IMG/VR virus record: IMGVR_UViG_3300010234_000004
Coordinates: 38,603 to 102,602 of that record
Origin: a virus
DNA: 64,000 bases
Reading direction: 5' to 3' (one strand)
Shown here: positions 1,825 to 63,541 of the stretch, one piece after another
Layout of the letters: each line of letters opens with the position of its first letter
Position numbering within the stretch: the first letter of the stretch is position 1
Made by a program: the position numbers and the translations under genes
The notes under the pieces: generated by a model
The model's database searches: none
What the model saw: only the letters and a program-made list of their open reading frames with translations
Told to the model about the DNA's origin: nothing

Positions 1825-3885
1825 ATGGCAGTTGACGTTTCAAGCATCAATAAAACATTAGGTTCGGCCTTTATGGGTGGCGACATTGGCGGGTTGACCG
1901 GCGGTGGTGGCGGTGGTGTGGCAGTTGAACCGTCATATGATCTAGCCGCACGCATGGGTTATCTGGGAGGTTCGTCGCCTGTTCAGAAAGACGACGATGA
2001 GTATTTCAAGGCAATGGCGTCATTGCGGGATTCTGATATGGGGTTCGCGTACCTTCCATCGTTAGTTCTTTTTGGTGATAAAATCCAAGAGGGTAAGACC
2101 ATATTCGATAACACGAAGGCGATTGAGCCTGTTAAAGAGCCGGTCGAAAAAATTGATGGTCACAAAGACGAGAAGAAAGATGCATCGCCATTCCACCAAC
2201 TGGAGGTGTTGATGGGGGGTAACGCAGCGGCGGTCAACTATGCACTTTCATTGCTGACTGGTGACAACCTTGATAAAAACTTGGAGATGCTCAAGAAGAA
2301 TCTGGTGGTTCCGCAATCGGTAATCGATAAAATCAGGGACTCTATTCAGCAGACTGATGAAAAACTACTGACCCCGTCTGGCCCCGGTGAGTATGAAAAG
2401 TTTAGGCAGGGCGAGAAGAGTGCAGGTCAAGGTGTGTTGGGTAAGCGAGAGGGGCAACCACCCCCAGGTGGCATTTCGAATATGGGCAAGATCGTTGCTG
2501 CTTTGGGTTCGATATCAGGCGGTGCATCTCAAATTCAGAGCATTATTGGTCAGGTCAAAAACAAGTTGGAATCCGCAGTGCCGACTCTGACGGGTAAATT
2601 GTTTGATGATCTGGCGCTTAACATTGATCCATTCGTGCAGAACATCCTTAATGGATTGATTGGTTCAGTCTTGGATGATTCAAAGGGTCGCTTGGAAATT
2701 CTAAAGGCCATCGCCAATGGGAATCTGGATAGGGCCGCGCAGTTGATTTTGGAGCTATCCGCCGTCGAGGGTATGACAATTGAGAAGATTACCGCCGCTT
2801 TGGAAGTCATTGAGACTGATGTTTCCAAATATGTGCAAACTGGAAAATATGAACCGGACGTGGAAACCGATTTGTCTAGAGAGGATAATAATGATTCTTA
2901 TGTCGAGACGGCTGAAGAGTTCGAAGCTGAGATTTCATCGTCACCGCGACCTATCAATGGGGTCGTGCTTCATACATCCAGTAAAGCCGATCCACGCAGT
3001 AATATCGATCCTACGCTGCTGGAAGAAACGCTGAAACAGTCATTTCATTACATCATGCAACCTAATGGTAGGATTTATAGGAGTTCGGGGCTTGGTAAAA
3101 TTATGGGTGGTCTGGCGGGAAATGCGGCTGGATTGATTCACATTCTAGTCGCGAAGGCTGATGACAATCCAAACAATTTTTTGAGCATCGATCAGGGCAA
3201 GAGTTATAGAGAAATGGTGAAGGTTTTTCACAGGTTGATTCCGGGTGTCCAGATTGCAAACTTCTCTGAGTTGAGTGATGCCAGCACAACCCCGATTGTT
3301 GGTATGAACCCAGGAGCAGTTCAATGTGGAATCACGGGCCTCAACAATCTAGGAACTGGTCCAGCGTCCAACTATCAACCGGGTATCAGAACAGGCGCAG
3401 AGCCGCCATCTAAGAACGCTCAAAGTTATGGTGGTCGAACCACCACAGGAAAGATGAAACACCAATTAGACCCGCGTTGTGGGGCCGTAAACGGCATTCT
3501 AACCTCGGTAGGAGATGCTTTGGGTATTCAGGTACGTGTTTCTTCCGGTTTTCGTGGTTCAGGCGGGTCTGGCAGGCACAACGGCAGGGCATCAGATTGT
3601 TATCTTGTGCGTGATGGGGTTATCATGTCAGCTATGCGTGCAGATCAGCGACCATATGTAATCAAATTCACCGACGAATTTCTTAAAGCTGGGGGTCGTG
3701 GTGTTGGGTGTGCGAACCATGCAACGGGCGGGAAAAAATACATGGGTGGTGACCACTATCACTACGACGTGGTTGGTAACCGTCGAGGTGGTGTGGATTT
3801 TTGGGGTGACCGACAGACTAAACATAATGGTGGTGCGCCAGTATGGTTATGGAACCTTGCACGTAGTCACGGATACAGGGGTTAA
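1825..3885 (+). CDS. Baseplate-associated protein with degenerate amidase-like domain and C-terminal M15-like Zn peptidase
   Basis: VVLHTS..FHYIMQPNGRIY (Amidase_2-like); VSSGFR..SGRHNGRASD..HYHYD (M15/LAS-type H, D and HxH ligands). Confidence 0.6.
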   Translation: MAVDVSSINKTLGSAFMGGDIGGLTGGGGGGVAVEPSYDLAARMGYLGGSSPVQKDDDEYFKAMASLRDSDMGFAYLPSLVLFGDKIQEGKTIFDNTKAIEPVKEPVEKIDGHKDEKKDASPFHQLEVLMGGNAAAVNYALSLLTGDNLDKNLEMLKKNLVVPQSVIDKIRDSIQQTDEKLLTPSGPGEYEKFRQGEKSAGQGVLGKREGQPPPGGISNMGKIVAALGSISGGASQIQSIIGQVKNKLESAVPTLTGKLFDDLALNIDPFVQNILNGLIGSVLDDSKGRLEILKAIANGNLDRAAQLILELSAVEGMTIEKITAALEVIETDVSKYVQTGKYEPDVETDLSREDNNDSYVETAEEFEAEISSSPRPINGVVLHTSSKADPRSNIDPTLLEETLKQSFHYIMQPNGRIYRSSGLGKIMGGLAGNAAGLIHILVAKADDNPNNFLSIDQGKSYREMVKVFHRLIPGVQIANFSELSDASTTPIVGMNPGAVQCGITGLNNLGTGPASNYQPGIRTGAEPPSKNAQSYGGRTTTGKMKHQLDPRCGAVNGILTSVGDALGIQVRVSSGFRGSGGSGRHNGRASDCYLVRDGVIMSAMRADQRPYVIKFTDEFLKAGGRGVGCANHATGGKKYMGGDHYHYDVVGNRRGGVDFWGDRQTKHNGGAPVWLWNLARSHGYRG

Positions 3886-3887
3886 TC

Positions 3888-5168
3888 ATGCCAGAGAATA
3901 GATCACCAAATGACCCGGGTAACCTGACCGACAAAAACGTTACTACTCCATCCCCGCGTCCACGGAAGGGCAACTTTGACGGCTCGACGAAGGAGTGGGA
4001 AACCTACAGTCGAAATTCGGCAGGCGGATTCCCGCGTGATCAATACAAAGATCAATCGGGGGTAAACGCTGGGGCGAGAGGTCAAGGCAATCGCCGTCTT
4101 AATACGGCTGGGGCATTGCCAGGGTCTTCAATTGGTTGTGGATCGGAGAACCGTTCTTCATACGCACAGGCACAGATCACTGAAACTCCAGGTGGTCATA
4201 TAGTAGAATATAACGACACGCTTGGGTCAGAAAGAATTCTAATTCGGCACGTGAGTGGTTCGGGTATTGAGTTTAGACCAGACGGATCGTGCGTCATTTC
4301 GTCAACTCGGTTGATTTTTGATACACAGGGTGATGTGAATCATCTCATGACGGGTAACATGAACTTCAAGGTTCCTGGTGTATTCAGTATGAAGTCCGGT
4401 GCCGATCTGAATATCGAGGCTGGCGGTAACATTGAATTGCTAACAGGCGGTTCTCTGGTCGAAAAGGTGGCGACCACCAAGCTAACTCATGTTGGCGGTA
4501 ACACCCGACATATAACATTGGGTGAATCCCAAACTGTCACAGTTGGTCCGAAAAGCGATACAAATTTGGGGGGTACTCAGTTATCCACGAAGGGCGACTT
4601 GACTATTCGTACAGAGGGTCGCGCAGGCATATACACAAGTGGCGCGATGGGGATCACAAGCCAGATCAACGCGTATTTGTCAGCACCTAAGATGGCGGTC
4701 AACGGTGATCAGCTAGAGATTGTCGGGAATAGGGGCACGATTGGTGGTCAGAACATCATCACATATTGCTTCAATGGTTACGCAGGCCACACATTCAAAT
4801 CAGGGGATACGGTATCGACCAGAACCCTACGCTCATCCGACACTGTTGTATCTCCGTATGCTGATATTACGGATATCAAGTCGACTCACATGAGCGCAAC
4901 CACGTTCAACGGTGATTTGGACGGCATAGCGAAAGAAGCATTGGTTGCACCAAATGGTGTTGTAACGGGTGGGACTTTTCAGAGTGTGAACGAGACCGCT
5001 CATGTTGCTGATAATACGGATGCGACATTCGAACCAAATGAGGAAATCATGGCCGCACGTATGAAGACTTTGGGTCATGGTGTGAAGTTCGTGAAGGTCG
5101 ACCCCGCAGGATATATCAAGGACAGCTTGAACAGAGCCAATCACAACGGCTTACTAGTAGCACCATAA
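3888..5168 (+). CDS. gp5 C-terminal beta-helix (puncturing needle) protein
   Basis: ETPGGHIVEYNDTLGSERILIRHVSGSGIEFRPDG followed by Gly-spaced beta repeats typical of the gp5 C-terminus. Confidence 0.75.
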   Translation: MPENRSPNDPGNLTDKNVTTPSPRPRKGNFDGSTKEWETYSRNSAGGFPRDQYKDQSGVNAGARGQGNRRLNTAGALPGSSIGCGSENRSSYAQAQITETPGGHIVEYNDTLGSERILIRHVSGSGIEFRPDGSCVISSTRLIFDTQGDVNHLMTGNMNFKVPGVFSMKSGADLNIEAGGNIELLTGGSLVEKVATTKLTHVGGNTRHITLGESQTVTVGPKSDTNLGGTQLSTKGDLTIRTEGRAGIYTSGAMGITSQINAYLSAPKMAVNGDQLEIVGNRGTIGGQNIITYCFNGYAGHTFKSGDTVSTRTLRSSDTVVSPYADITDIKSTHMSATTFNGDLDGIAKEALVAPNGVVTGGTFQSVNETAHVADNTDATFEPNEEIMAARMKTLGHGVKFVKVDPAGYIKDSLNRANHNGLLVAP

Positions 5169-5179
5169 AGGATTAGAAG

Positions 5180-6094
5180 ATGGTAGCACCTACAAAAAAT
5201 GATGGTAAGAAAACGACCGAAGATGTTCCATACGTACAAGGTGAGCAATTCCCCACATTAACGGCTAAACAGGCCGCGACGAAAATGTGGAATAGCAAGC
5301 TTAGAAGCAATGGTAAATTCCTCCAGACACAAATCATGGAGGGCAACCTTGGTGAGAACGCCGTAACAGGAAGTGCACCGTCTGTCAAGGCTATTGCTAC
5401 ACGGGGGGCGCGTACAGGATTCACGGCTTTGGGTACGGGGGGTAATCCATCAAAAACGTTTAAATCGAATCCCCAATTGCCGACATTCATTCCACACCCC
5501 GATTACTATCCGGACTATGACACGTCTGTGATGAGCCGATATGACAGGGGTGCAGATAACAACCTAACTCGGCGGATTGCCATGGGTGCATTTATGGGGG
5601 GCAATTCAGTCGGTTCTCTGAAGGATGTTGACCATACAGAGATTGCCCGAAACCTACACATGCAGGCACAGATTCTAGATGCTATTCGTATGCGTCCAGA
5701 ATTTAATGGTTATATGCTAGATGTGGATGAGGGGGTCTACAAGTATGAGAAATTGGAGGAGAAACAGGAAGGCGACATGGCCGATTTTCTTTCAAAAGGA
5801 CGGACGGTTGGATATAAAATGTACGATTACAACGGTAAGGAGTCTATCTACAAGCTTTGGGAGGTCGCTCAATACCTACAGGATTTTCCGTTCACAGAAA
5901 AAGTAATGATGGAATATAACACATGGAACGAGGGGGGTGCACAGACTCGCCTGTTTGTCGGAGTTCCGGACATGCGGGGTGATATTCACGGTGCAAAATT
6001 CAAACGTCAGACGGAAACTATCTTTAATGGCACTCCAATATCGGGTTCTTTGATGCTTTGTGATGTGATAAAAGTGGACGAGGGTCCATCTTAA
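5180..6094 (+). CDS. Hypothetical baseplate-region protein
   Basis: 304-aa ORF with RBS between the gp5-C and gp25 genes. Confidence 0.5.
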   Translation: MVAPTKNDGKKTTEDVPYVQGEQFPTLTAKQAATKMWNSKLRSNGKFLQTQIMEGNLGENAVTGSAPSVKAIATRGARTGFTALGTGGNPSKTFKSNPQLPTFIPHPDYYPDYDTSVMSRYDRGADNNLTRRIAMGAFMGGNSVGSLKDVDHTEIARNLHMQAQILDAIRMRPEFNGYMLDVDEGVYKYEKLEEKQEGDMADFLSKGRTVGYKMYDYNGKESIYKLWEVAQYLQDFPFTEKVMMEYNTWNEGGAQTRLFVGVPDMRGDIHGAKFKRQTETIFNGTPISGSLMLCDVIKVDEGPS

Positions 6095-27645: not shown

Positions 27646-27653
27646 TATAAATA
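27646..27653 (+). promoter_or_regulatory. T4-type late promoter TATAAATA
   Basis: Exact consensus upstream of gp13. Confidence 0.8.
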
Positions 27654-27677: not shown

Positions 27678-28445
27678 ATGGCCGCAGTAACATCAAGAGA
27701 CGAATTAATAGATCACTGTTTTCGGCGGTTGGGTGCACCCGTGCTTGAAATTAACGTTGACGAAGAACAGGTTGAAGACCGCATAGACGATGCTTTGCAA
27801 ATGTACAACACATTTCATGCAGACTCGACCGTGAAGGTATATCTTCAGCACGCGTTGACTCAGGATGATATCGATAACGAATGGATACCCATTTCAGCTA
27901 ATGTGATGTGGGTTAACCGTCTATTTCCTATCGCGTCCAGTGCGTATGGCGGAATGTTTTCAGCCAAATACCAGATGCATCTGAATGACGTTTTCTCGTT
28001 GAGTGGGTTTTCCGGTGGTGGAGGTGGTACTGGTTGGCTGTCTGAATATAGCCAGACCATGCAATTCATGGCTACGCTGAGTATGACCATGAATAGCGAG
28101 CCACAAGTGAATTTTGTCCGTAAGCAAAATCGTCTGTATCTGCACGGGATCATGAGTCACGAAACTCTAGAGGTTGGTGATTATGTTATTGCTCAGACTG
28201 AGGTGCTGGTCGATTCAACACAATTCCCTGAAGTATGGGATGATATGTGGCTGAAGAAATATGCTACCGCTCTGATCAAAAAGCAGTGGGGTCAGAACAT
28301 GAGCAAATTTGAGGGTATGCAATTGCCAGGTGGAGTGATCCTAAACGGCCTGCAAATTCTCAATGACGCATTGGAAGAAATTACCACGCTCGAAGAGGAA
28401 TTACGTCTAACGTATGAACTCCCAATCGATTTTTTCGTCGGATAA
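27678..28445 (+). CDS. gp13: Neck protein gp13
   Basis: LGAPVLEINVDEEQVEDRIDDALQ; WLKKYATALIKKQWGQN; LPGGVILNG. Confidence 0.93.
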   Translation: MAAVTSRDELIDHCFRRLGAPVLEINVDEEQVEDRIDDALQMYNTFHADSTVKVYLQHALTQDDIDNEWIPISANVMWVNRLFPIASSAYGGMFSAKYQMHLNDVFSLSGFSGGGGGTGWLSEYSQTMQFMATLSMTMNSEPQVNFVRKQNRLYLHGIMSHETLEVGDYVIAQTEVLVDSTQFPEVWDDMWLKKYATALIKKQWGQNMSKFEGMQLPGGVILNGLQILNDALEEITTLEEELRLTYELPIDFFVG

Positions 28446-28449
28446 TCAA

Positions 28450-29196
28450 ATGATCAGATTCAAGACATTTATGAATGAAAGTGTTAATGTTAAGGGTGAA
28501 GAGCGCCATATTGTAAAAGTGGCTCTTAAATACAGGGACATCGAAGTTCACTTCATAAAAAATTTAAGTGGTAACCCTAACCTTCCTGGGTTCGATTATT
28601 CGACCATAGCATATGAGGTGGATCATGAGGGCAGAAGATCAGATGTGAACCATCATGGTTCATACAATAAGCTATATGACGATGAGAAGAAGTGGAGGAG
28701 TGCCCGCGATAGACTCAAGAAGAAACACGCCAAGCTGAACGAGAACTACACACCGCCAAAACTAAAGGTCGGGGATGAGGTCAAGGTCGGTAAATGGAAA
28801 AACCGTAAGGCCGTTATCAAGGGATTCACGAAGGATAAGCATAATCAGCCTGTTTTGAAAACCAATAAAGGGGATCAAAAGTTATTCAAACCACGGATTT
28901 CAAAATTGGAAGAGGGTTATAAGATCAAGTTGGAGAGAAATTCCAACATGTACGTATTGAATATCACCGACACTAAAAATGGCAATAGGACTGAAGTACG
29001 TGGTAAAAGCGGTTACGAAGGGGGTGGATATGATTCAAAGGATAAGCTTCATCAGTTGCTAGATAAGATCGGACGGTCGGCTAATGTATCAGAGTTGATT
29101 AATGGCTCTGTCGTTACGATAAACCCCAAACATCCAAATGCCGCCTCCGCGAAAACCGCTTTGGTGAAGGCGTTTAATGAATCGGAGGAAAAATGA
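28450..29196 (+). CDS. Putative internal head (poly)protein with capsid-targeting leader
   Basis: Starts MIRFKTFMNE; Lys-rich; internal LNE and LEE sites; KOW-like LKVGDEVKVG. Confidence 0.55.
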   Translation: MIRFKTFMNESVNVKGEERHIVKVALKYRDIEVHFIKNLSGNPNLPGFDYSTIAYEVDHEGRRSDVNHHGSYNKLYDDEKKWRSARDRLKKKHAKLNENYTPPKLKVGDEVKVGKWKNRKAVIKGFTKDKHNQPVLKTNKGDQKLFKPRISKLEEGYKIKLERNSNMYVLNITDTKNGNRTEVRGKSGYEGGGYDSKDKLHQLLDKIGRSANVSELINGSVVTINPKHPNAASAKTALVKAFNESEEK

Positions 29197-29741
29197 TCAG
29201 ATTCAAGGCATTCATCTCAGAAGACATTTCCACAAAGGCTCTGGATTACGCGACAAAGGCCCATAAGGGGCAGTTTCGTTCAGATGGCACAGAGTACATA
29301 AAACATCCAGAACGCGTTGCAGCATACGTTAAAGGCTTCAAAAAGAGCCATAATCTTGATGCTCTCCTAGCGGCGGCGTTTCTACACGATACGGTCGAAG
29401 ATACGGACACCACTCACGAAGATTTGGAGAAGATGTTTGGGGGTCTGGTCGCTGGATTAGTAAAGGAATTGACCAGCGATAAGGACGAAATCGAGAAGAT
29501 CGGGAAAAAGGAATATCTCAGCCGTAAGATGGAAACGATGAGTAGTTACGCATTAGTAGTAAAACTTGCGGATCGTCTGGACAATGTTCAGGATATCGCT
29601 ACCGCAAAGACTCCTGAGTGGCGCACTAAATATAAGAAAGAAACTTTGGGGATTTTGGCACGCCTTGAGAAGAACCGTAAGCTTTCCGGTAGTCATAAAA
29701 AAATCATCAAGGCCATCAAGGTCAAATTGGGAGAAGTATAA
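29193..29741 (+). CDS. HD-domain (p)ppGpp hydrolase family (Mesh1/SAH-like) with capsid-targeting leader
   Basis: AHKGQFR..YIKHP; AAFLHDTVEDT; VKELT; VKLADRLDN; leader MIRFKAFISE. Confidence 0.85.
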   Translation: MIRFKAFISEDISTKALDYATKAHKGQFRSDGTEYIKHPERVAAYVKGFKKSHNLDALLAAAFLHDTVEDTDTTHEDLEKMFGGLVAGLVKELTSDKDEIEKIGKKEYLSRKMETMSSYALVVKLADRLDNVQDIATAKTPEWRTKYKKETLGILARLEKNRKLSGSHKKIIKAIKVKLGEV

Positions 29742-30055
29742 TGAGATTCAAGACATTTATCAACGAAGCACCAAAATATCCGTTGTACCACAAAAATTTC
29801 ACGAATGCTGTGGATGCTGCGGTTGCTTATGCTGAAAAGGGGGGGTATACGGTCGATCCTGAAGACCTGTCCGATGCTCTCTCACAGGCCAAGGATTCCG
29901 GTGGTGGGGTTCTGACTCGTGCACGTCCAGCAAAAAACAAGACCACAGTGGTGGCGGTTCCCGTCTCGAAAAAGGGGAAGAAGTCCAAATCATACCTCCA
30001 AATACAGATCGCCAATCTGGACGACAAGCGGTACGAACTGAACACGTATGTGTAG
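29741..30055 (+). CDS. Putative internal head protein with capsid-targeting leader
   Basis: Starts MRFKTFINE; C-terminal LQIQI..YELNTY. Confidence 0.55.
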   Translation: MRFKTFINEAPKYPLYHKNFTNAVDAAVAYAEKGGYTVDPEDLSDALSQAKDSGGGVLTRARPAKNKTTVVAVPVSKKGKKSKSYLQIQIANLDDKRYELNTYV

Positions 30056-30067
30056 AAGGTAAGCCAA

Positions 30068-30952
30068 ATGGCGAGGAATCCATATTTCACACAAGGCTCG
30101 TTGAGCGAGCAGAACCTCCATGAGGATATCATGATTGAGGCTCTGAAAATTTATGGCCAAGACGTGTACTATCTACCGCGTGACACGGTAAATGAAAATC
30201 ACGTTCTCGGAGCAGATGTTCCGTCGCGCTTCAATTCCACATACAAGGTCGAAATGTATCTGGAGAACACGGAAGGCTTTGATGGCGAGGGCGACCTGTT
30301 CTCGAAGTTCGGTGTTGAGATTCGGGATCAGGCCACGTTCGTTGTCGCTCGAAAGCGTTGGAAGCATACGGTTGAGTATTACGATAACGAGATTACTACT
30401 ACTCGCCCCCTTGAAGGTGATCTGATCTACATTCCGTTATCCAATTCGATGTTCGAGATTACACAGGTTGAGCATGAACAGCCGTTTTACCAATTGTCTG
30501 ATTTGCCTACCTATAAGCTGCGTTGTGAGAAATTCGAGTACAACGATGAGCAGTTGAATACAGGTGTGGACGTTATTGATAGCATCGAAAAGACCGGTTT
30601 TGAACTGAAACTAACCATGGTCGATAGCGATGGTAAAGGTCAATTCCAGATCGGTGAATTGGTCAATCAGACACTGGGCACCGGAGTAGTAATGAATGGT
30701 GAAGTCACCGATTGGAACGATTCAGACAACATGCTTTCATTGGCACATATCGGGTCTGACGATGATAGTTATCACATGTTCACGGCTGGTGGGGTTATTA
30801 CTGGTGCGGAATCTGGAACCATACGGACGATCAGTTCGGTTAGTGACGAATTGGCACAGGTTGACGCGCAAAATAATGATTTTGAGAGTCAAGGAATTTC
30901 CTTCCTAGATTTCTCTGAAACGAATCCATTCGGTGATCCACCGTCCAGCTAA
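30068..30952 (+). CDS. gp14: Neck protein gp14
   Basis: NPYF..EALKIYGQDVYYLPR; FSKFGVEIRD; RPLEGDLIY; VEHEQPFYQL; DFSETNPFG. Confidence 0.93.
   Translation: MARNPYFTQGSLSEQNLHEDIMIEALKIYGQDVYYLPRDTVNENHVLGADVPSRFNSTYKVEMYLENTEGFDGEGDLFSKFGVEIRDQATFVVARKRWKHTVEYYDNEITTTRPLEGDLIYIPLSNSMFEITQVEHEQPFYQLSDLPTYKLRCEKFEYNDEQLNTGVDVIDSIEKTGFELKLTMVDSDGKGQFQIGELVNQTLGTGVVMNGEVTDWNDSDNMLSLAHIGSDDDSYHMFTAGGVITGAESGTIRTISSVSDELAQVDAQNNDFESQGISFLDFSETNPFGDPPSS

Positions 30953-39341: not shown

Positions 39342-39361
<20 letters not shown>
37655..39361 (+). CDS. gp20: Portal protein
   Basis: WYIDGR; NQLRMMEDSLVIYRLARAPERRIFYIDTGNLPK; EDYWLPRREGGRGTEI; Pro/Lys/Glu-rich repetitive tail. Confidence 0.97.
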
Positions 39362-40250
<889 letters not shown>

Positions 40251-42872: not shown

Positions 42873-43082
42873 ATGAGTGATATTGAAGACATGGTCAGCA
42901 AACTGGCAGACGGTGACAATGTAGGGGCTAAAGTTAGCTTCAATAATGCAATGTCAAGTAAGGTTACTGATGCTCTGGAGCAAGAGACTGCTGCAATTGC
43001 CGCTCGACTGTACGCGGGAGCCGAAGCCTCACAGGAGCCTGAAGATGTGGATGCCGTTGAGGATGATGATGAAGACGTTTAA
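42873..43082 (+). CDS. gp67: Prohead core protein gp67-like
   Basis: Small acidic protein, F..AMS.KV.DAL pattern, position before gp21. Confidence 0.7.
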   Translation: MSDIEDMVSKLADGDNVGAKVSFNNAMSSKVTDALEQETAAIAARLYAGAEASQEPEDVDAVEDDDEDV

Positions 43083-43278
43083 AGAAATCCGTGAGTCTAC
43101 GAAAAGTAGTAACGAAACGGTTTATGATGTGAAGATCGCACGTCATCGTATCACGGTGAAGCAGATCAAGAACAAATTCACTGTGTTTATCGATGGCGAT
43201 AAACTGGACGAATTCAATGACCAGAAATCGGCTGTGTCCGCTGGCAAAGAGTTCGTCAAGCAGTATAACAAAGGATAA
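43069..43278 (+). CDS. Prohead core/internal protein gp68-like
   Basis: MKTFKEIRE leader; between gp67 and gp21. Confidence 0.6.
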   Translation: MKTFKEIRESTKSSNETVYDVKIARHRITVKQIKNKFTVFIDGDKLDEFNDQKSAVSAGKEFVKQYNKG

Positions 43279-43282
43279 AGCT

Positions 43283-43936
43283 ATGAAGTTGATGTGCGAA
43301 TATCTAGAGGGCGGCATTAATATGCTGACTGAGGCTAATGAAAAGGGCGAAAAATCCTATTTCATTGAAGGTGTATTCGCGCAGGCTGATAAGCAAAACC
43401 GTAATGGACGACGTTATCCCCAACCAGTGATGGAAGGTGCGATTAAGAAGTACATTACGGAACAAGTTTCTAAGGGTCGAGCCGTAGGTGAGTTGAATCA
43501 CCCATCTGGTCCGACCATTAACTTAGACAAGGTTTCGCATAAGATCACGTCTCTCAGATTTGAGGGAAATGATGTTATCGGAAAGGCACAAATTTTGGAT
43601 ACTCCTATGGGTAAGATTGTGAAAAATCTTATGGATGGGGGAGTGCAATTGGGTGTGTCAACTAGAGGTATGGGTAGTCTAGAGCAGAAAAATGGTGTGA
43701 TGGAAGTGAAAAATGATTTTCATTTAGCGACCATCGACATTGTTCAAGACCCATCAGCACCTGACGCTTTTGTGAATGGAATCATGGAAGGTGTTGAATG
43801 GGAATGGAACAACGGAATCATCCAAGCTAGAGACGTTGAGGCCGCAAAACAGGAGATAGTTGAAAGTGTTCGGGAATTTATTCCAGAGCATCAGATCAAG
43901 GAATTTAAGGATTTCTTGAATGGTCTGAAACGCTAA
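43283..43936 (+). CDS. gp21: Prohead protease
   Basis: YFIEGVF..NRNGRRYP; GELNHP; LGVSTRGMGSL; DPSAPDA. Confidence 0.95.
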   Translation: MKLMCEYLEGGINMLTEANEKGEKSYFIEGVFAQADKQNRNGRRYPQPVMEGAIKKYITEQVSKGRAVGELNHPSGPTINLDKVSHKITSLRFEGNDVIGKAQILDTPMGKIVKNLMDGGVQLGVSTRGMGSLEQKNGVMEVKNDFHLATIDIVQDPSAPDAFVNGIMEGVEWEWNNGIIQARDVEAAKQEIVESVREFIPEHQIKEFKDFLNGLKR

Positions 43937-44011: not shown

Positions 44012-44911
44012 ATGGAAGATCATATTGAGACTGACGCCAACGAGAACGAAGTTCTGGAAATGGCAACTAAACACGACGAACAGAACGCTGAAAAGCATTC
44101 TGAAAACGCGACCGATGAGGCCGCTAAAAAAGTAAAGAAATCTGCTTCTAAGCGCAAAGGTGACAAAGGTTCGCAAGACCCTATGGCAGCAAGCGTGAAG
44201 GAAGACCTCGCAGCTTTGGTTGACGGGGAAGCCACACTTTCAGAAGACTTCAAAGAAAAGACTGCTGTCCTTTTCGAAGCTGCTGTTCAGGCCAAAATCT
44301 CTGAAGAGATTGAGCGTCTGGAAGAAAGCTACGAAGAGCGCCTTGCAGAGGAAGTCGAAGAAACTCACGCCAAAATGGTTGACAGTGTGGACAGCTTTCT
44401 TAACCACGTGGTCGAAAGTTGGATGGACGACAATAAAGTCGGCATCGAACAGGGTATCCGTACTGAAATCGCTGAGAACTTCATCGTAGGCCTTAAAGGT
44501 CTGTTCGATGAGTCTTACGTGGATGTTCCGGAATCTAAATTCGATCTCGTTGATGAACTTGCAGAGAAAGTTGAAGAGTTGGAAGCATCTCTCAACGAAG
44601 AAATGGAAGGCGCAATGCGTCTTGCGGAAGCCAACGAAGAATTGGTCCGTGAAATGGTTTTGCTCGAATGCAGTGAAGGTCTTGTTGATACGCAAGCCGA
44701 AAAACTGGCCATTCTGGCTGAAACTGTTGATTTCGAATCTGCTGAAACTTTCCGCGACAAGGTGGAAATCATCAAAGAGTCTCATTTCTCAGTAGCAACC
44801 CACGATGCTGTAAGCATTCAGGAAGGTGTTGACGAAGACTTGGACGAAGAAGTCATCGTTGAAGAAACCGACCCGCGTATGGCCTCTATTCTTAAAGCAC
44901 TCAGAGGCTAA
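44012..44911 (+). CDS. gp22: Prohead scaffold protein
   Basis: LSEDFKEKTAVLFEAAV; very acidic coiled coil; precedes MCP. Confidence 0.93.
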   Translation: MEDHIETDANENEVLEMATKHDEQNAEKHSENATDEAAKKVKKSASKRKGDKGSQDPMAASVKEDLAALVDGEATLSEDFKEKTAVLFEAAVQAKISEEIERLEESYEERLAEEVEETHAKMVDSVDSFLNHVVESWMDDNKVGIEQGIRTEIAENFIVGLKGLFDESYVDVPESKFDLVDELAEKVEELEASLNEEMEGAMRLAEANEELVREMVLLECSEGLVDTQAEKLAILAETVDFESAETFRDKVEIIKESHFSVATHDAVSIQEGVDEDLDEEVIVEETDPRMASILKALRG

Positions 44912-44942
44912 TCCCTCTCTCCAAAATAAGGAAAATGACGAC

Positions 44943-46313
44943 ATGACTAAAGCAACATACAGTGAATTGAAAGCCAAATGGTCTTCAGTTCTTAACGAAG
45001 AAGCCGCTGGTGAAATCCGCGACGACTATCGTAAAAGCGTAACCGCACGTCTTCTGGAAAACCAAGAAGAAGTTTCCATGCTTGAGCAGGAAGCTGTCAA
45101 CTACTTGGCAGAAGATGGCCAGAACAACACCACCGCTGTGACCGGCGCTGGTACTGCTAACTGGAACCCAGTTCTTATGGCTCTGGTTCGCCGTGCAATG
45201 CCTAACATGATGGCTTATGACCTTGCGTCTGTTCAGCCTATGACTGGTCCTACAGGCCTCGTGTTCTGCATGAAGTCGAAGTACAAAACCACTAAAGCTG
45301 GCGTTTCCGCTGGTGATGAAGCACTGTTTAACGAGCCAGCAATCGGTTATGCCGCTGACTCTTCTACTACTGCTAATGGTGGAACTTCAGGTCTTGCTGG
45401 TCTTACTGATGACTCCTCAACTGGTCTCCGCACCGTTGACTCGTCTATCGATGACTCCCGTACTGGCCCGACTCTTCCAGATCGCTATTCCACTGTTGAA
45501 ATGGAAGGCCTTGGCGCTACTGGTAACGAAGCATTTGCTGAAATGGGCTTCACCATCGACAAAGCAACTGTTACTGCTGAAGGCCTCGCGCTGAAAGCTG
45601 ATTACACCATCGAAATGGCACAGGACTTGAAAGCTATCCACGGTCTCGAAGCAGAGCGTGAACTGGCCAACATCCTGACTTCAGAAATCTTGGGTGAGAT
45701 TAACCGTACCGTTGTACGTACAATCAACTCTCAGGCTAAAACTGGTTGCCTTCAGGCCAACACTGCAATCAACGGTATCTTCGACTTGTCGACCGATGCT
45801 GATGGTCGTTGGTCGGTTGAAAAGATCAAAGGCTTGATCCTTCAGATCGAACGTGAGTGTAACGTTATCGCCAAAGAAACCCGTCGTGGTAAAGGCAACA
45901 TCGCTGTTGTATCCTCCGACGTTGCTTCTGCTTTGGCTGCTTCTGGCATGTTGGACTACGCTCCTGCAATGTCAACTCAGTTGAACGTTGATGACACTGG
46001 TAACACCTTCGCTGGCGTGCTGAACAAGAAGATCAAAATTTATGTTGATCCTTATGCAGACGTTGACTACATCACTGTAGGCTATAAAGGCACATCCGCA
46101 TACGACGCTGGTGTATTCTACTGCCCATACGTTCCATTGACCATGGTTCGTGCTGTTGGTGAGAACGACTTCCAGCCACGTATCGGCTTCAAAACCCGTT
46201 ACGGTATGGTATCCAACCCATTCGTTGGCGCTACGCCAGCTAACGGTCTGGCTGCTGCTAAGACTAACCAGTACTACAGAATCTTCCGCGTTGATAACCT
46301 GCTGGCTTCCTAA
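44943..46313 (+). CDS. gp23: Major capsid protein
   Basis: LLENQE; LVRRAMP; VQPMTGPTGL; AQDLKAIHG; FYCPYVPL; FQPRIGFKTRYG. Confidence 0.98.
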   Translation: MTKATYSELKAKWSSVLNEEAAGEIRDDYRKSVTARLLENQEEVSMLEQEAVNYLAEDGQNNTTAVTGAGTANWNPVLMALVRRAMPNMMAYDLASVQPMTGPTGLVFCMKSKYKTTKAGVSAGDEALFNEPAIGYAADSSTTANGGTSGLAGLTDDSSTGLRTVDSSIDDSRTGPTLPDRYSTVEMEGLGATGNEAFAEMGFTIDKATVTAEGLALKADYTIEMAQDLKAIHGLEAERELANILTSEILGEINRTVVRTINSQAKTGCLQANTAINGIFDLSTDADGRWSVEKIKGLILQIERECNVIAKETRRGKGNIAVVSSDVASALAASGMLDYAPAMSTQLNVDDTGNTFAGVLNKKIKIYVDPYADVDYITVGYKGTSAYDAGVFYCPYVPLTMVRAVGENDFQPRIGFKTRYGMVSNPFVGATPANGLAAAKTNQYYRIFRVDNLLAS

Positions 46314-50682: not shown

Positions 50683-50859
50683 TTAACTTCTGACCTGAAT
50701 CCTGACCTGATTACTGACCTGAACCCAGACCTGACCCCAGACCTGACCACAGACCTGATCCTCGACCTGATTATAGACATGTCTCCTGACCTGATCCTCG
50801 ACCTGACCCCTGACCTGACCCCAGACCTGATCCTCGACATGATTCCTAACTGATTTCAT
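50683..50859 (-). CDS. xxQV-repeat mini-protein H (58 aa)
   Basis: MKSVRNHVEDQVWGQV..QVRS*. Confidence 0.6.
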   Translation of the reverse strand: MKSVRNHVEDQVWGQVRGQVEDQVRRHVYNQVEDQVCGQVWGQVWVQVSNQVRIQVRS

Positions 50860-51055
50860 TATGCACCTGACTCCTGACCTGATTCCAGACCTGACTCCTG
50901 ACCTGATCACTGACCTGAACCCAGACCTGACCCCAGACCTGACCACAGACCTGATCCTCGACCTGATTATAGACATGTCTCCTGACCTGATCCTCGACCT
51001 GACCCCTGACCTGACCCCAGACCTGATCCTCGACATGATTCCTAACTGATTTCAT
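50846..51055 (-). CDS. xxQV-repeat mini-protein G (69 aa)
   Basis: MKSVRNHVEDQV..QVHNEIS*. Confidence 0.6.
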   Translation of the reverse strand: MKSVRNHVEDQVWGQVRGQVEDQVRRHVYNQVEDQVCGQVWGQVWVQVSDQVRSQVWNQVRSQVHNEIS

Positions 51056-51206
51056 TATGCACCTGACTCCTGACCTGATTACTGACCTGAACCCAGACCT
51101 GATCCCAGACCTGACCACAGACCTGATCCTCGACCTGATTATAGACCTGACCCCAGACCTGATTATTAACCCGATCCCAGACCTGTTTCTTAACGGATTT
51201 CATCAT
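51042..51206 (-). CDS. xxQV-repeat mini-protein F (54 aa)
   Basis: Hand-translated: MMKSVKKQVWDRVNNQVWGQV..QVHNEIS*. Confidence 0.6.
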   Translation of the reverse strand: MMKSVKKQVWDRVNNQVWGQVYNQVEDQVCGQVWDQVWVQVSNQVRSQVHNEIS

Positions 51207-51234
51207 GCACCCAATTCCTAACTGATTTCATCAT
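51190..51234 (-). CDS. Collapsed xxQV unit E (14 aa, head and tail only)
   Basis: MMKSVRNWVHDEIR*. Confidence 0.45.
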   Translation of the reverse strand: MMKSVRNWVHDEIR

Positions 51235-51415
51235 ACACCTGATCCCAGACCTGATTCCAGACCTGACTCCTGACCTGATCACTGACCTGAACCCCGACCT
51301 GACCCCCGACCTGAATACTGACCTGACCCCAGACGTGATCCTCGACGTGATCCTCGACCTGATACCAGACCTGACCCTCGACCTGATCCCAGACCTGTTT
51401 ATTAACACTATTCAC
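51218..51415 (-). CDS. xxQV-repeat mini-protein D (65 aa)
   Basis: GTG start after GAGGAG; MNSVNKQVWDQV..QVYDEIS*. Confidence 0.6.
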   Translation of the reverse strand: MNSVNKQVWDQVEGQVWYQVEDHVEDHVWGQVSIQVGGQVGVQVSDQVRSQVWNQVWDQVYDEIS

Positions 51416-51635
51416 TGATTTTCTCCTCGACCTGATTCCCGACCTGTTTATTGACCTGAAGCCAGACCTGATCCTCGACCTGATCCCAGACCTGATCCCC
51501 GACCTGAACCCAGACCTGAACCCAGACCTGATCCTCGACATGATTCCCGACCTGTTTATTGACCTGATCCTCGACCTGATCCTCGACCTGATTCCCGACC
51601 TGATCCCTGACCTGAATCCTAACTGACTTCATCAT
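51408..51635 (-). CDS. xxQV-repeat mini-protein C (75 aa)
   Basis: MMKSVRIQV..NQVEEKISE*. Confidence 0.6.
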   Translation of the reverse strand: MMKSVRIQVRDQVGNQVEDQVEDQVNKQVGNHVEDQVWVQVWVQVGDQVWDQVEDQVWLQVNKQVGNQVEEKISE

Positions 51636-51807
51636 ACACCTGATTCCTGACCTGTTTATTGACCTGATCCTCGACCTGATCCTCGACCTGATTCCTGACC
51701 TGAAGCCAGACCTGATTCCTGACCTGACCCCCGACCTGATTCCTGACCTGACCCCAGACGTGATCCTCGACCTGATTATAGACCTGAATCCTAACTGTCT
51801 TCATCAT
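51619..51807 (-). CDS. xxQV-repeat mini-protein B (62 aa)
   Basis: MMKTVRIQV..QVYDEVS*. Confidence 0.6.
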   Translation of the reverse strand: MMKTVRIQVYNQVEDHVWGQVRNQVGGQVRNQVWLQVRNQVEDQVEDQVNKQVRNQVYDEVS

Positions 51808-51988
51808 ACACCTGAATCTGGACCTGACGCCAGACCTGAACCCAGACCTGAACCCAGACCTGATTCCAGACCTGATCCTCGACCTGATCCTCGACCTGAT
51901 CCTCGACCTGATCCTCGACCTGACCCCAGACCTGATCCCAGACCTGATCCGCGACCTGATTATAGACCTGTCTCCTAACACTATTCAC
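51791..51988 (-). CDS. xxQV-repeat mini-protein A (65 aa)
   Basis: GTG start after GAGGAG; MNSVRRQV..QVYDEDS*. Confidence 0.6.
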   Translation of the reverse strand: MNSVRRQVYNQVADQVWDQVWGQVEDQVEDQVEDQVEDQVWNQVWVQVWVQVWRQVQIQVYDEDS

Positions 51989-53183
51989 TGATTTTCTCCT
52001 CGACCTGATTTCTTCCATTAGGGTCAACCCGCAAACCATACTCAGTCTTTTCATAATCATCATTAATCACAAGTCTTCGATTGAAACGTCTGTAATCCAC
52101 ATTATGGTGCCACCGTCCAAACTTTTTTACTACTTCTACACAGTCGGGATGCTGTTCCTGCAATGATTTAGCAAAACCCAACCTATCATCACCACCAAGG
52201 TATACCGAATCTGTGTTACCACCCCTGACCCTTTGAGTGGTTACCTTACCAGCCAAAAAACCATTCATTAGAATAGTGTTATATCCGGCCTTTAGAATCC
52301 GTAGAGATAGGTCAGTATCCTCATTAAAACGGCCTCGCCACATTTGTCCATTATCATCGCGAACACCTTCCAAATTCTTGTACATTAGCGTGCACGAATA
52401 TATTCGAGTGTTCAGATAATATGGAGGCACGTGATCGGTCTTCTTAGCAAATGAGTGATAGTTCAGGCCAGCCTGTCCGACGTTTGTGAAACGTGCGCTG
52501 TAGTCTTCCACCACCCTAAACATCGTGTCGGTTCTGGACACATATTTGGTGTTGTCATTCATGATATAGAATTCTTCGATGTTATCATCCATCAACCAAT
52601 AACGATCATGATCAGCTAACTCATCATTAACAAAATTTCTCACCGGAATGCTGCACCCGCTGTTTACATCAAAGTCACCAGTGACCACCCGATCACCCCA
52701 CCTCTCTTGATATAAGGCCATCTCAGAGGGTTCTACGACAATCTGATAGTCTGCACCCAACCTATCAAGACTGGCCGCTGTGATGCAGTTAGGACGCCCT
52801 TTTGATATGATATAGATCGGGCATCTGGGTTTGAGATTGCTATCAGAAACCCATGCAAAATCCCCCAATGTTCTGTCGAGTTGTGGATACCATACACTTT
52901 TGGTCTTATCCGTAATCGGTTGATCTAAAAGCTCAGATAACTTTTTATTACTAAAATCAGTGTCCACTTTGAACAGAGCAAAGGATTCGACCTTTCTCGA
53001 CACGAATGGTGGCATATCCGCATAGAACGGATCATCCAGATTATAATCCTTCTTAGGGTGCACCTTTCCATACTTCGGTCTGGCCCATGTATCAAACAGG
53101 GCATCAGTATTACCAAACCTCTCAGATATGTAATCAGTTGCTGACTGGTCGCCTGTTCTAATATTGAGAGTCCTCAATCCCAT
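51981..53183 (-). CDS. TET-associated/GREB1-like (T2/T6 beta-alpha-glucosyltransferase-like) glycosyltransferase with N-terminal extension
   Basis: PIYIISKGR; IVVEPSE; WLMDDNI; RIYSC; WRGRFNEDTDLSLR; GGNT; HHNVDY. Confidence 0.7.
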   Translation of the reverse strand: MGLRTLNIRTGDQSATDYISERFGNTDALFDTWARPKYGKVHPKKDYNLDDPFYADMPPFVSRKVESFALFKVDTDFSNKKLSELLDQPITDKTKSVWYPQLDRTLGDFAWVSDSNLKPRCPIYIISKGRPNCITAASLDRLGADYQIVVEPSEMALYQERWGDRVVTGDFDVNSGCSIPVRNFVNDELADHDRYWLMDDNIEEFYIMNDNTKYVSRTDTMFRVVEDYSARFTNVGQAGLNYHSFAKKTDHVPPYYLNTRIYSCTLMYKNLEGVRDDNGQMWRGRFNEDTDLSLRILKAGYNTILMNGFLAGKVTTQRVRGGNTDSVYLGGDDRLGFAKSLQEQHPDCVEVVKKFGRWHHNVDYRRFNRRLVINDDYEKTEYGLRVDPNGRNQVEEKISE

Positions 53184-58299: not shown

Positions 58300-58491
58300 T
58301 CATTCACTCCTGACCTGAACCCAGACCTGAACCCAGACCTGATTCCAGACCTGATCCTCGACCTGATCCTCGACCTGACCCCTGACCTGACCACAGACCT
58401 GATCCTCGACCTGACCCCAGACATGGTCCTCGACCTGAAAACAGACCTGATCCCAGACCTGACCACAGACCTGATTCCTAACCGATTTCAT
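58300..58491 (-). CDS. xxQV-repeat mini-protein I (63 aa), locus 2
   Basis: MKSVRNQVCGQVWDQVCFQV..QVRSE*. Confidence 0.6.
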   Translation of the reverse strand: MKSVRNQVCGQVWDQVCFQVEDHVWGQVEDQVCGQVRGQVEDQVEDQVWNQVWVQVWVQVRSE

Positions 58492-59449
58492 CAGTGATAC
58501 GTTTTCGGGCCAACTCGATGGCCGCATCCTGTGGATCATCCTCATGAGTGACCAACCTGACAATTTCGCGAAGACTGTCAAAATCTCCCGTTGTCATTTC
58601 TTTGTTCAAAGCAACTGCCATGACTCCACCAGCATTCGCCACAAAATCGGGAACGTAGTAGAATTTCTCAGACGCCCATTCCTGAACCTGTTTAGAAGAA
58701 AACTGATTGTTAGCCGCTCCACAGATAAATTCAACTGTCAAATCAGCGAAGTTATCCTCATTGATCGCCCCACCTAAAGCGCAAGGCGCGAAAACATCAG
58801 CCGCAATGTTATAGATATCCTTCTCAGAAACCATATTCACACCATCCATTTCTTTTACTACTGGATCGTATGCGTTAATGGTCACACCGTCAGCCAATAG
58901 TAATTTAGTAAGCTTAGAGCCGACTTTACCAAGACCTTGAATGTTGACAATGGTCTCATTTAGTGGAACGTCACTATTATAACGTCCAAGCAGTTCCATC
59001 ATGCACGCGTATACGCCCATGGCCGTAGGACCAGAACTATCGATGTCGATCCCGCCAACCCACTTAGTGGATTTCTGGATCATGCGAAGATCGTGTTCAT
59101 CAGTGCCGACATCGCCTGCAATGATATATGTGCCACTCAAAGTATTAATGAAATTGCCCAGCCGCTCGAACGCCAGATCGCGGTTCTTGATTTTTGACGC
59201 ATCGACAGCAGTTTTACCGCCACCATGATTAATACCGCACGCCGAATTCTTATGGGTCATGCCTTCAGCCAACCGTAGAACGTCGTTAAACTGTGCGGCC
59301 TCGTCTTCATAAACCATACACCGACAACCGCCCAAGGCTGGACCCAGTTTGGTATTGTGTATCGCGACTAATGCGAATAGTCCCGATTCCTCATCCTCAA
59401 CCCGAAATATCGCCTCGAACCCAGGATGACTGATATAAGCACTTTTCAT
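58478..59449 (-). CDS. Glu/Leu/Phe/Val dehydrogenase (leucine dehydrogenase-like)
   Basis: IHNTKLGPALGGCR; LAEGMTHK; GGGK; QGLGKVG; FAPCALG; GAANNQ; PDFVANAGG. Confidence 0.9.
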   Translation of the reverse strand: MKSAYISHPGFEAIFRVEDEESGLFALVAIHNTKLGPALGGCRCMVYEDEAAQFNDVLRLAEGMTHKNSACGINHGGGKTAVDASKIKNRDLAFERLGNFINTLSGTYIIAGDVGTDEHDLRMIQKSTKWVGGIDIDSSGPTAMGVYACMMELLGRYNSDVPLNETIVNIQGLGKVGSKLTKLLLADGVTINAYDPVVKEMDGVNMVSEKDIYNIAADVFAPCALGGAINEDNFADLTVEFICGAANNQFSSKQVQEWASEKFYYVPDFVANAGGVMAVALNKEMTTGDFDSLREIVRLVTHEDDPQDAAIELARKRITDEIG

Positions 59450-59461
59450 TTTTAGACACTC

Positions 59462-59683
59462 CTATTTATTATAAACCACAATCTCACATGAATCCCAATC
59501 CCCGAAGAGATCGTCAGGCTCAAAATAATCCGAACACGTATAGCGAGTGATCTTACCAGAGATCGAGTTGAAATTTTTATCATTCGAACCATGATCATGA
59601 TTATTAAGGTGCAATAGAAAGGATACGCATACGAGCAGCAAGCTCACAAGAATCATGGTATTAGTAGTGGTCATTTTTATCAT
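59462..59683 (-). CDS. Small membrane-anchored hypothetical protein
   Basis: N-terminal hydrophobic helix. Confidence 0.5.
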   Translation of the reverse strand: MIKMTTTNTMILVSLLLVCVSFLLHLNNHDHGSNDKNFNSISGKITRYTCSDYFEPDDLFGDWDSCEIVVYNK

Positions 59684-60662
59684 CTCTACACCAAGCATCG
59701 ACTTGCTTTATTAATTTCATAAACTCATCTTTATATTTATCTCCAATTATACCACACTTTGCACGCCATTGCAACACAATCTCTTCAAGTTTTTCCTTTG
59801 GTACATTTTTGAGCGATAGGTGTTTAGGGTATATCACCGTATTGAATGCCAGATAGATATAACGATCCTCACAGAACTCCACGAAATCTTCCATTTCTTC
59901 ATAGTTATTGACCATCGGACAAACCTGTATAACCAATTCGCGGTGATGCTGATGACAAATGTCAACAAACTCATCAACATTGGCCATAAGCTTTTTGAAA
60001 TTTCCGTTTACTCTGATCTGTTCATATCGCTCAGGAATCAGGCTATCGATGCTGATATTCAAGTGAATGTTACACGTAACCATGAACTTCCTTACAACCC
60101 TGTTGAGTACCGATCCGTTGGTCGCTATTACTACTTTCAGCGTCGGGTTGATTTCGGCCACTGCATCTAAAATCTTATGGACGATCTTCTGAAGGAACGG
60201 CTCGCCTCCATTTATTCGTAACTCGCTTAGATGTGGAATGAACTCACGCATCTGCACAACGAAAGAATCGTCATACATCATTTTTTGAGGCGGTAGCTTA
60301 TCTCTATTCTTCCGGATGCCAGAACTCAACTGACCCCAGCACATCACACACTCAAGATTACATTGATTGCTCAACTCCAATTCAATGACTGATGGATAAT
60401 CATTCATCGGATATCCCGAATACGCGTCCGACAGTGTTGGGATTTTGTGGAGCATGTCTTTACTACATTCTCCACACCGACCCATGCTGTAGTCATTTTC
60501 AATCAGGGTACTTCGATAATTATCGAAGAAGTCACCATTCCAAATATCCATCAGTGAATTATCACCCGACCAGACAGGTGATTCCTCCATGGATTTCCAA
60601 CATGGTGATACACGTCCAAGAACGTCGATATACATATTTATGAATGGCGCTCTACATGTCAT
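59661..60662 (-). CDS. Radical SAM protein with N-terminal SPASM/twitch-like domain
   Basis: CRAPF..GRVSPC..CGEC; CNLECVMC; GGEPF; TNG. Confidence 0.85.
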   Translation of the reverse strand: MTCRAPFINMYIDVLGRVSPCWKSMEESPVWSGDNSLMDIWNGDFFDNYRSTLIENDYSMGRCGECSKDMLHKIPTLSDAYSGYPMNDYPSVIELELSNQCNLECVMCWGQLSSGIRKNRDKLPPQKMMYDDSFVVQMREFIPHLSELRINGGEPFLQKIVHKILDAVAEINPTLKVVIATNGSVLNRVVRKFMVTCNIHLNISIDSLIPERYEQIRVNGNFKKLMANVDEFVDICHQHHRELVIQVCPMVNNYEEMEDFVEFCEDRYIYLAFNTVIYPKHLSLKNVPKEKLEEIVLQWRAKCGIIGDKYKDEFMKLIKQVDAWCRDDKNDHY

Positions 60663-63369: not shown

Positions 63370-63541
63370 ACACCTGACCCCAGACCTGATCCCCGACCTG
63401 ATTCCTGACCTGACCCCAGACCCGATTCCTGACCTGATCCCCGACCTGACTCCTGACCTGATCCCTGGCCTGATTACAGACCTGTTTAGAGACCTGATTC
63501 CTGACCTGATCCCTGACCTGTTTCTTAACTGATTCCATCAT
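63353..63541 (-). CDS. xxQV-repeat mini-protein J (62 aa)
   Basis: MMESVKKQVRDQV..QVYDEVS*. Confidence 0.6.
   Translation of the reverse strand: MMESVKKQVRDQVRNQVSKQVCNQARDQVRSQVGDQVRNRVWGQVRNQVGDQVWGQVYDEVS

Follow-up and report, generated by a model that had tools for sequence, protein, structure and literature searches.

The 64,000-nucleotide stretch of viral DNA analyzed here (the window; positions 38,603 to 102,602 of the IMG/VR record IMGVR_UViG_3300010234_000004) is the right-hand 64 kb of one linear virus contig of 102,602 bases, and it carries at 29193-29741 (+) a gene for a small alarmone hydrolase (SAH) whose first ten residues resemble the capsid targeting sequence of phage T4. 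The reading that we favor, with a confidence slightly above even, is that the product is cargo of the phage head: the leader would target it there, the prohead protease would trim it after E10, and it would be injected with the DNA and act on 3'-pyrophosphorylated nucleotides. The enzyme would probably be delivered ready-made with the phage DNA. Targeting, cleavage, packaging, injection, substrate, and benefit are all steps that we infer. Alarmone hydrolases of phages have been described before, as has the T4 tag, and it is their combination that appears to be new.

The gene encodes an intact small alarmone hydrolase

The segment 29193-29741 (+) is exactly one open reading frame (ORF) with an ATG start and codes for 182 amino acids. 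The protein matched the Pfam family HD_4 (PF13328; E 4.8e-19, 69.1 bits against a cut-off of 27.2) over residues 16-162, corresponding to profile positions 1-152 of 156. Only HD families matched the 182 residues, which form a single-domain protein with no synthetase domain. The NCBIfam matches corresponded to the hydrolase part of RelA/SpoT proteins; TIGR00691, for example, was matched via this part only (profile positions 1-144 of 687). The closest solved relatives by sequence were Drosophila Mesh1 (E 4.6e-20) and human Mesh1 (7.6e-20), followed by Rel/SpoT hydrolase domains and then by the Pseudomonas small alarmone hydrolase, and the (p)ppApp hydrolase Aph1 was a distant relative only (E 1.9e-07).

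With the alignment register to MESH1 fixed by the D66K mutant chain 5vxa, residues R29, H38, H65-D66, E69-D70, D127, and N131 align to MESH1 R24, H35, H61-D62, E65-D66, D122, and N126. These residues were invariant across an alignment of 55 homologous sequences, in which P39 was conserved to at least 90% and the mean column identity over the hydrolase body was 68%. Following the Mesh1/Rel literature, we take them to comprise the metal-binding set H...HD...D, the catalytic ED pair, an Arg, and the Asn of KLADRLxN. The same alignment yielded an AlphaFold model (pLDDT 92.8, pTM 0.88) with the all-helical fold of the SAH type, and Foldseek superimposed this model on human MESH1 5vxa (TM 0.81/0.83) and on the Pseudomonas SAH 6yvc (TM 0.79/0.82). 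The intact Mesh1/SpoT-type HD motifs described in an earlier note on this DNA are borne out by the above-threshold HD_4 match, the invariant metal and catalytic residues, and the MESH1-like modeled fold. Within the limits of sequence evidence, the identification as an intact Mesh1/SpoT-type small alarmone hydrolase is established. Metazoan Mesh1 (HDDC3) and the Pseudomonas aeruginosa SAH share its fold and catalytic residues (TM 0.79-0.83, 26-31% identity), but they are cellular proteins without an N-terminal leader, and their alignments begin at query residue 15.

The MESH1 structures that are its nearest solved relatives were solved with NADPH and 3'-phosphoadenosine 5'-phosphosulfate (PAPS), which would suit a metabolic phosphatase like metazoan MESH1, active on NADPH or other 3'-phosphorylated nucleotides and without any role in alarmone turnover or defense. 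We regard this explanation as very unlikely, given that (p)ppGpp hydrolysis by Mesh1 and Rel enzymes relies on the residues aligned above (title of entry 3nr1), that the NCBIfam matches fall where they do, and that relatives (see below) have the domain fused to nucleotide and RNA-end enzymes.

The leader resembles the T4 capsid targeting sequence

Residues 1-10 of the hydrolase, MIRFKAFISE (29193-29222, +), form a capsid-targeting-like propeptide ending in I-S-E, and residues 11-182 together with the stop codon (29223-29741, +) correspond to the predicted mature enzyme with its Mesh1/SpoT HD_4 fold. The T4 capsid targeting tag is textbook knowledge; in the T4 record, IPII and IPIII begin with MKTYQEFIAE and IPI with MKTFKEF...ITE (in full MKTFKEFTSTTTPVSTITE). 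According to a review of the work of Mullaney and Black (PMC9026906), residues 1-10 of IPIII are enough for incorporation into the head, with residues 4 and 7 chiefly governing targeting and residues 8 and 10 governing processing. At these mapped positions, MIRFKAFISE and MKTYQEFIAE have F/Y at 4, F at 7, I at 8, and E at 10. The leader is thus a very good match to the T4 tag, with all four functionally mapped positions kept, and the capsid-targeting-like character that the earlier note had assigned to it stands. In the AlphaFold model, residues 1-10 have a mean pLDDT of 49 and there is no secondary structure before residue 12, where the fold begins.

The leader recurs at the two adjacent genes: MIRFKTFMNE starts the upstream ORF-A (28450) and MRFKTFINE the downstream ORF-C (29741). 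Both ten-residue leaders, those of the hydrolase and ORF-A, have F4, F7, I8 or M8, and E10, and the nine-residue leader of ORF-C lacks codon 2, so that its equivalent residues stand one position earlier. When all six frames of the 102.6-kb contig were searched with a loose leader pattern, four matches were obtained, three of which were these gene starts and the fourth of which lay inside a PhoH-like gene. Pairwise, the three leaders share 24/30, 25/27, and 22/27 bases (80-93% DNA identity), and the bodies behind them gave no meaningful blastp match to one another. Such a common leader on three apparently unrelated bodies is far beyond chance. The isoelectric points (pI) of the three proteins, 9.3-9.8, are close to those of T4 IPI-III (8.9-9.5). 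Leaders of this kind package the T4 internal proteins and the ADP-ribosyltransferase Alt, which are injected (PMC3012670, PMC5694885).

A cut-site-like motif marks the domain boundary in homologs and polyproteins

The boundary between leader and fold was compared in two sets of homologs. A word-indexed search yielded 529 clusters (90% identity) at E 1e-5 or better, and the best 120 of these, which were 64-97% identical and nearly all 180-190 amino acids long, were analyzed together with the query (121 sequences). An exhaustive search of 1.84 billion representatives yielded 158 clusters (50% identity) at E 1e-30 or better; 150 of these 158 proteins were used for the library comparison, and dropping six with truncated N-termini left 144. 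By either count, the family is large.

In 112 of the 121 close homologs, the stretch ahead of helix 1 was closed by [ILMVF]-x-E, which lay four residues before a conserved AL-x-YA in 106 cases and five residues before it in 6. The motif was absent from nine sequences, two of them truncated. The leaders themselves were mostly 8-25 residues long and showed little sequence conservation beyond the aromatic pair. Among the library representatives with at least 59% identity (n = 40; median 612 amino acids), the domain was internal in 34, and the motif was found 3-6 residues upstream of it in 36 (exactly four residues in 30). Below 59% identity, 18 of 104 representatives had the motif (at exactly four residues in 5), and many of the 104 start 4-10 residues before helix 1.

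Polyproteins with an internal hydrolase domain range from 255 to 1005 amino acids, and the same motif precedes the domain in them. The C-terminus of the hydrolase family is a nearly invariant L-x-E-[VIL] (here residues 179-182, window 29727-29738), and in the polyproteins a short linker of the DNPQ(Q)GVAE type comes after the domain and ends in a second [VL]-x-E. The hydrolase module in the polyproteins is thus flanked on both sides by motifs that look like cut sites. The boundary persists no matter whether a ten-residue tag or other modules several hundred residues long stand upstream of it, so the leader and its motif lie outside the SAH fold. This is how a module of cargo released by a protease would be expected to look, and it represents our strongest evidence for processing. 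We scanned 32 polyproteins from among the 40 close representatives for the partners fused to the hydrolase and found cytidylyltransferase-like domains in 6, NT5C in 2, GNAT in 2, and others in single cases; a polyvalent-protein ADP-ribosyltransferase was fused in 2 of the 32, with scores under the family cut-off.

The gene lies in a probable late operon between two neck genes

A T4-type late-promoter motif, TATAAATA (27646-27653, +), is found 25 nt before the gene for a gp13-type neck protein (head-tail adaptor Ad2; 27678-28445, +; phrog_211, 3.2e-37). The ATG of ORF-A (28450-29196, +; 248 amino acids, pI 9.8, leader at 28450-28479) sits 5 nt past the gp13 stop. The stop codon of ORF-A overlaps the start of the hydrolase gene (ATGA), whose own stop overlaps the start of ORF-C (TAATG; 29741-30055, +; 104 amino acids, pI 9.5, leader at 29741-29767). 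Next comes a gp14-type neck protein gene (30068-30952, +; Pfam T4_neck-protein 2.5e-37, phrog_460 1.3e-83); we take gp13 and gp14 to be adjacent in T4. The window contains seven copies of TATAAATA, all on the + strand and each shortly upstream of the start of a + strand ORF, as compared to a mean of 1.9 in shuffled sequences, none of which reached seven in 100 shuffles. Those at 27646, 35152, and 42833 stand ahead of gp13, the gene for the tail sheath, and the gp67-like gene, respectively. Downstream of the 27646 motif, no + strand terminator-like site was found until 34536. The promoter motif, the lack of a terminator-like site before the gene, and the flanking neck genes support the late structural operon that had been proposed for this locus. 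A 579-nt contig from an RNA library, 95% identical, spans the junction of ORF-A and the hydrolase gene, with carry-over of DNA possible; in such contigs gaps are uninformative, and neither transcript starts nor strand can be read from them.

ORF-A and ORF-C matched no family in Pfam, PHROGs, or NCBIfam, and in a protein atlas they matched only viral hypothetical clusters and a KOW-like stretch under the bar of the tool. Within ORF-A, an internal L-N-E occupies residues 96-98, immediately before the KOW-like module. An assignment of the hydrolase as the type IV antitoxin SAH of a toxSAS module (ATfaRel type) was rejected, as there is no adjacent toxSAS gene and the neighbors are gp13, the two proteins of unknown family, and gp14.

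Cassettes behind the leader vary among relatives and strains

Orthologs with 56-93% identity were found on 11 viral contigs. One of these repeats the order gp13, ORF-A, hydrolase, ORF-C, gp14. On another, gp15, gp13, and gp14 come first; a CCA-adding-type enzyme and a leader-bearing ORF stand next, ahead of the hydrolase and then an NT5C-type nucleotidase. On other contigs, the hydrolase stands among leader-bearing DUF6267, cytidylyltransferase-like, DUF5824, and HAD-type proteins. The leaders were alike within one contig and different between contigs, as illustrated by MKSFNQFREE..., present three times in one, and M(M)LSF..FI.E in another.

Marine metagenome runs from four studies contain the stretch or close relatives of it, and strain variants were retrieved from runs X1, X3, and X8. 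In these variants, 270 nt are deleted directly behind the ORF-A leader (window 28470-28741), giving MIRFKTF-L-E...; an extra leader-bearing cassette of ~540 nt lies between the hydrolase gene and ORF-C (window 29738-29748); and an ATC insertion restores the Ile codon, so that the ORF-C leader becomes MIRFKTF. Judged by these variants, the leader doubles as a swapping joint. Swapping at a shared leader has been described for the internal-protein loci of T-even phages. Among isolate phages, homologs were detected at the protein level in 13 records, all of large or jumbo phages, with 40-46% identity.

Head-assembly genes and a candidate Alt-like effector on the same contig

The window also encodes T4-type proteins of head assembly, namely a gp67-like prohead core protein (42873-43082, +; phrog_1064, 3.6e-07), a gp21-type prohead (head maturation) protease that is expected to cut after [I/L]-x-E (43193-43936, +; phrog_207, 1.8e-80), and a gp22-type acidic scaffold protein (44012-44911, +; phrog_237, 1.4e-70), whose first 272 residues have a pI of 4.3 and contain 21 [ILV]-x-E sites. 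The gene for a gp23-type major capsid protein follows (44826-46313, +; phrog_138, 3.5e-143), with the true start probably at the ATG at ~44943.

Outside the window, at contig positions 12246-14897 (-), lies the gene for an 884-amino-acid protein whose C-terminal part is an ADP-ribosyltransferase domain (Pfam ADPrib_exo_Tox, 2.7e-17). The protein starts with METMDFRSFIDDHSLTE, which resembles the three leaders in its related F-x-x-F-I core (F-R-S-F-I) and also contains an L-T-E. We consider this protein a candidate Alt-like packaged effector. T4 Alt is packaged, injected, and cut at ITE-6 and LTE-619 (PMC5694885). A blastp comparison of the 884-residue protein with T4 Alt gave only a 30-residue match (E 0.027), and its kinship to Alt thus rests on Pfam and PHROG families and not on direct similarity.

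Proposed mode of action

Under the packaging reading, the gene product would be an active SAH, that is, a Mn-dependent 3'-pyrophosphohydrolase with the hydrolase fold of RelA/SpoT homologs (RSH). Its precursor, made late in infection with the ten-residue leader, would be brought by this leader into the scaffold core of the assembling prohead, which the two flanking leader-bearing proteins and probably the Alt-like ADP-ribosyltransferase would enter as well. The gp21-type protease would then cut after I-S-E10, and the basic 19-kDa mature enzyme would remain in the DNA-filled head and enter the next host along with the DNA. In the new host, it would act on (p)ppGpp and (p)ppApp, stripping off their 3'-pyrophosphate, and possibly do the same to tRNA CCA ends that toxSAS enzymes have pyrophosphorylated. 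As an outcome, starvation signaling would be lowered and an alarmone- or toxSAS-based defense would be blunted ahead of phage gene expression.

A counter-defense role is plausible in light of two published observations. Two stand-alone phage SAHs neutralized all five toxSAS toxins tested (PMC7229694), and MESH1 and an SAH restored aminoacylation of tRNA that FaRel2 had pyrophosphorylated (bioRxiv 10.1101/2021.04.30.441581). Freshly synthesized major capsid protein activates CapRel (PMC9712102). If the gene is late, as its context suggests, new enzyme would be in the cytoplasm alongside new major capsid protein, so that an effect in the producing cell would be inseparable from one after injection.

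A broader picture, which we consider doubtful, is that marine T4-like phages carry a modular kit of injected enzymes that is released by protease and addressed by one leader. The hydrolase would then serve mainly in the repair of tRNA 3' ends, removing the pyrophosphate added by CapRel-type toxSAS from CCA ends from the first second of infection, alongside the cytidylyltransferase-like, ligase-like, 5'-nucleotidase, and ADP-ribosyltransferase modules that are fused or adjacent to it in relatives.

Packaging weighed against other explanations

Several observations weigh against packaging and injection. The residue following the motif Glu is Asp in 91 of the 112 motif-bearing homologs, but Ala in T4 IPI-III. 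Many leader-bearing neighbors in relatives are sizeable enzymes (DUF6267, cytidylyltransferase-like, NT5C), and it is a strong claim that all of these are packaged. No close copy was found among isolate phages, the best being 46% identical, and the sole isolate copy inspected, that of Vibrio phage Va1, is without the leader. The preferred substrate cannot be read from the residues, with (p)ppGpp, (p)ppApp, pyrophosphorylated tRNA, and NADPH as candidates, and human MESH1 acts on NADPH too (title of entry 5vxa).

A further point concerns the leader itself, which could be shared as a result of recombination between cassettes, given that modules are deleted or inserted right behind it in the strain variants. 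This leads to the explanation that the hydrolase is an ordinary late protein of the cytoplasm that is never packaged and either lowers alarmones or reverses toxSAS action in the producing cell, the leader being a recombination or translation-start cassette. The gene is co-oriented and coupled with late structural genes, CapRel fires on newly made major capsid protein and hence late (PMC9712102), and both the loss of 270 nt behind the ORF-A leader and the gain of a leader-bearing cassette before ORF-C, along with the high DNA identity of the leaders, are what such a cassette would produce. However, a cassette leaves unexplained why the four key residues of the T4 tag are retained, why a variable leader ends in [ILMVF]-x-E just ahead of the fold in the great majority of close homologs (112/121), and why the motif brackets the domain inside polyproteins; moreover, the leader is modeled as disordered and outside the fold. 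We therefore consider a purely cytoplasmic role unlikely, although it is the main competing explanation.

The last of these points concerns a possible partner. SAHs serve as antitoxins of toxSAS (PMC7229694), and MuF-fused (p)ppApp synthetases have an adjacent hydrolase (PMC11699363), so that the enzyme might be a hydrolase for immunity, comparable to a type IV antitoxin, that shields the infected cell from an alarmone synthetase toxin of the phage itself, as Aph1 does for MuF-Apk2. A search of the six frames of the 102.6-kb contig for the RelA_SpoT synthetase domain (PF04607) gave no match, though the contig is estimated to be only ~63% complete and a partner could be missed. Similarly, no synthetase was present among 18 neighboring ORFs from the 5 of the 11 related loci that were scanned. 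In view of both searches, we assign this explanation a very low probability.

Comparison with known systems

The packaging reading relates the hydrolase most closely to T4 IPI-III and Alt, with which it shares an N-terminal leader of about ten residues with aromatics at positions 4 and 7, Ile at 8, and Glu at 10. As in T4, the leader is common to basic proteins that are otherwise unrelated and probably late, in a locus of polymorphic cassettes, and gp21-, gp22-, and gp67-type genes are encoded here too. There are also differences. The mature part is a conserved enzyme and not a small inhibitor, and blastp against IPI-III gave E values of 3.7 or worse; the locus lies between the neck genes gp13 and gp14 and not at the position of the T4 ip genes; the residue after the predicted cut is Asp instead of Ala; and packaging is here a prediction.

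Stand-alone phage SAHs have been described in the Salmonella phages PVP-SE1 (PbcSpo) and SSU5 (PaSpo) (Jimmy et al. 2020, PMC7229694), and phage SAHs are annotated in jumbo phages, as the 'HD-alarmone PDease' (Iyer et al. 2021, PMC7824862), and in a Pakpunavirus (PMC12846349). Like the protein studied here, PbcSpo, PaSpo, and the jumbo-phage enzyme are single-domain RSH hydrolases with a proposed counter-defense role against alarmone or toxSAS systems. The comparison is one of descriptions only, and these, in their accessible parts, present the three as ordinary gene products and mention neither a targeting leader nor an association with the virion. The MuF-fused Apk2 synthetase toxins of temperate phages with their hydrolase Aph1 (PMC11699363) also tie alarmone chemistry to a head-targeting module. 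In this system, however, the synthetase is the cargo and the hydrolase the immunity protein, and targeting occurs by the MuF domain instead of a short cleavable leader. In the literature searched, which lies outside subscription journals and supplements, we found no paper that combines a phage alarmone hydrolase with a T4-type capsid tag.

Marine phage biology has long asked whether phages override the stringent response, and by what means. The idea that cyanophage MazG does so has been weakened by the finding that MazG prefers dGTP and dCTP over (p)ppGpp (cited in PMC12846349). If our reading is correct, a pre-made alarmone hydrolase would act before any phage gene is read, with the greatest effect in the permanently starved hosts of the ocean and against defenses that use alarmones or pyrophosphorylate tRNA. 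The short leader may also offer a route, by sequence only, to the likely injected proteome of uncultured T4-like phages.

Identity of the phage and other features of the contig

The phage is an uncultured marine myovirus of the T4 type, in which gp13, gp14, gp15, and the small and large terminase were recognized, along with sheath, tube, portal, gp67-like core, gp21-type protease, gp22-type scaffold, and gp23-type capsid protein. Its capsid protein is at most 58% identical to those of isolates, the closest being Phage C48C1, with 52-53% identity to Methylophilales phage Melnitz and cyanophages. A search of isolate phages for near-identical DNA found none.

A collagen-like repeat protein (window 39342-40250, +) is encoded directly after the portal gene, and four ORFs without family lie between it and the core and protease genes. 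At contig positions 19350-20944 (-), a ClpP-type protease (1.8e-33) adjoins a full-length SbmA/BacA-like inner-membrane transporter (2.3e-115). A TET-associated glycosyltransferase (window 51984-53183, -; Pfam TAGT, 8.8e-31) is located among several other glycosyltransferases, which suggests that the DNA of the phage contains sugar-modified bases. A 12-bp tandem repeat, GACCTGATCC(T/C)A, forms long arrays at window positions 50692-51970, 58312-58475, and 63372-64000 and at contig positions ~170-1300, that is, at both ends of the contig and beside the glycosyltransferase gene. The largest array comprises ~104 copies over 1.3 kb, and the arrays give rise to apparent ORFs of the type SGIRSGIRS.... 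Finally, window 58481-60662 (-) and contig 2269-5427 encode a Glu/Leu/Phe/Val-type dehydrogenase, radical SAM/SPASM proteins, a carbamoyltransferase, and a DUF6065 protein; such a combination of metabolic or modification genes is unusual in a T4-like phage.

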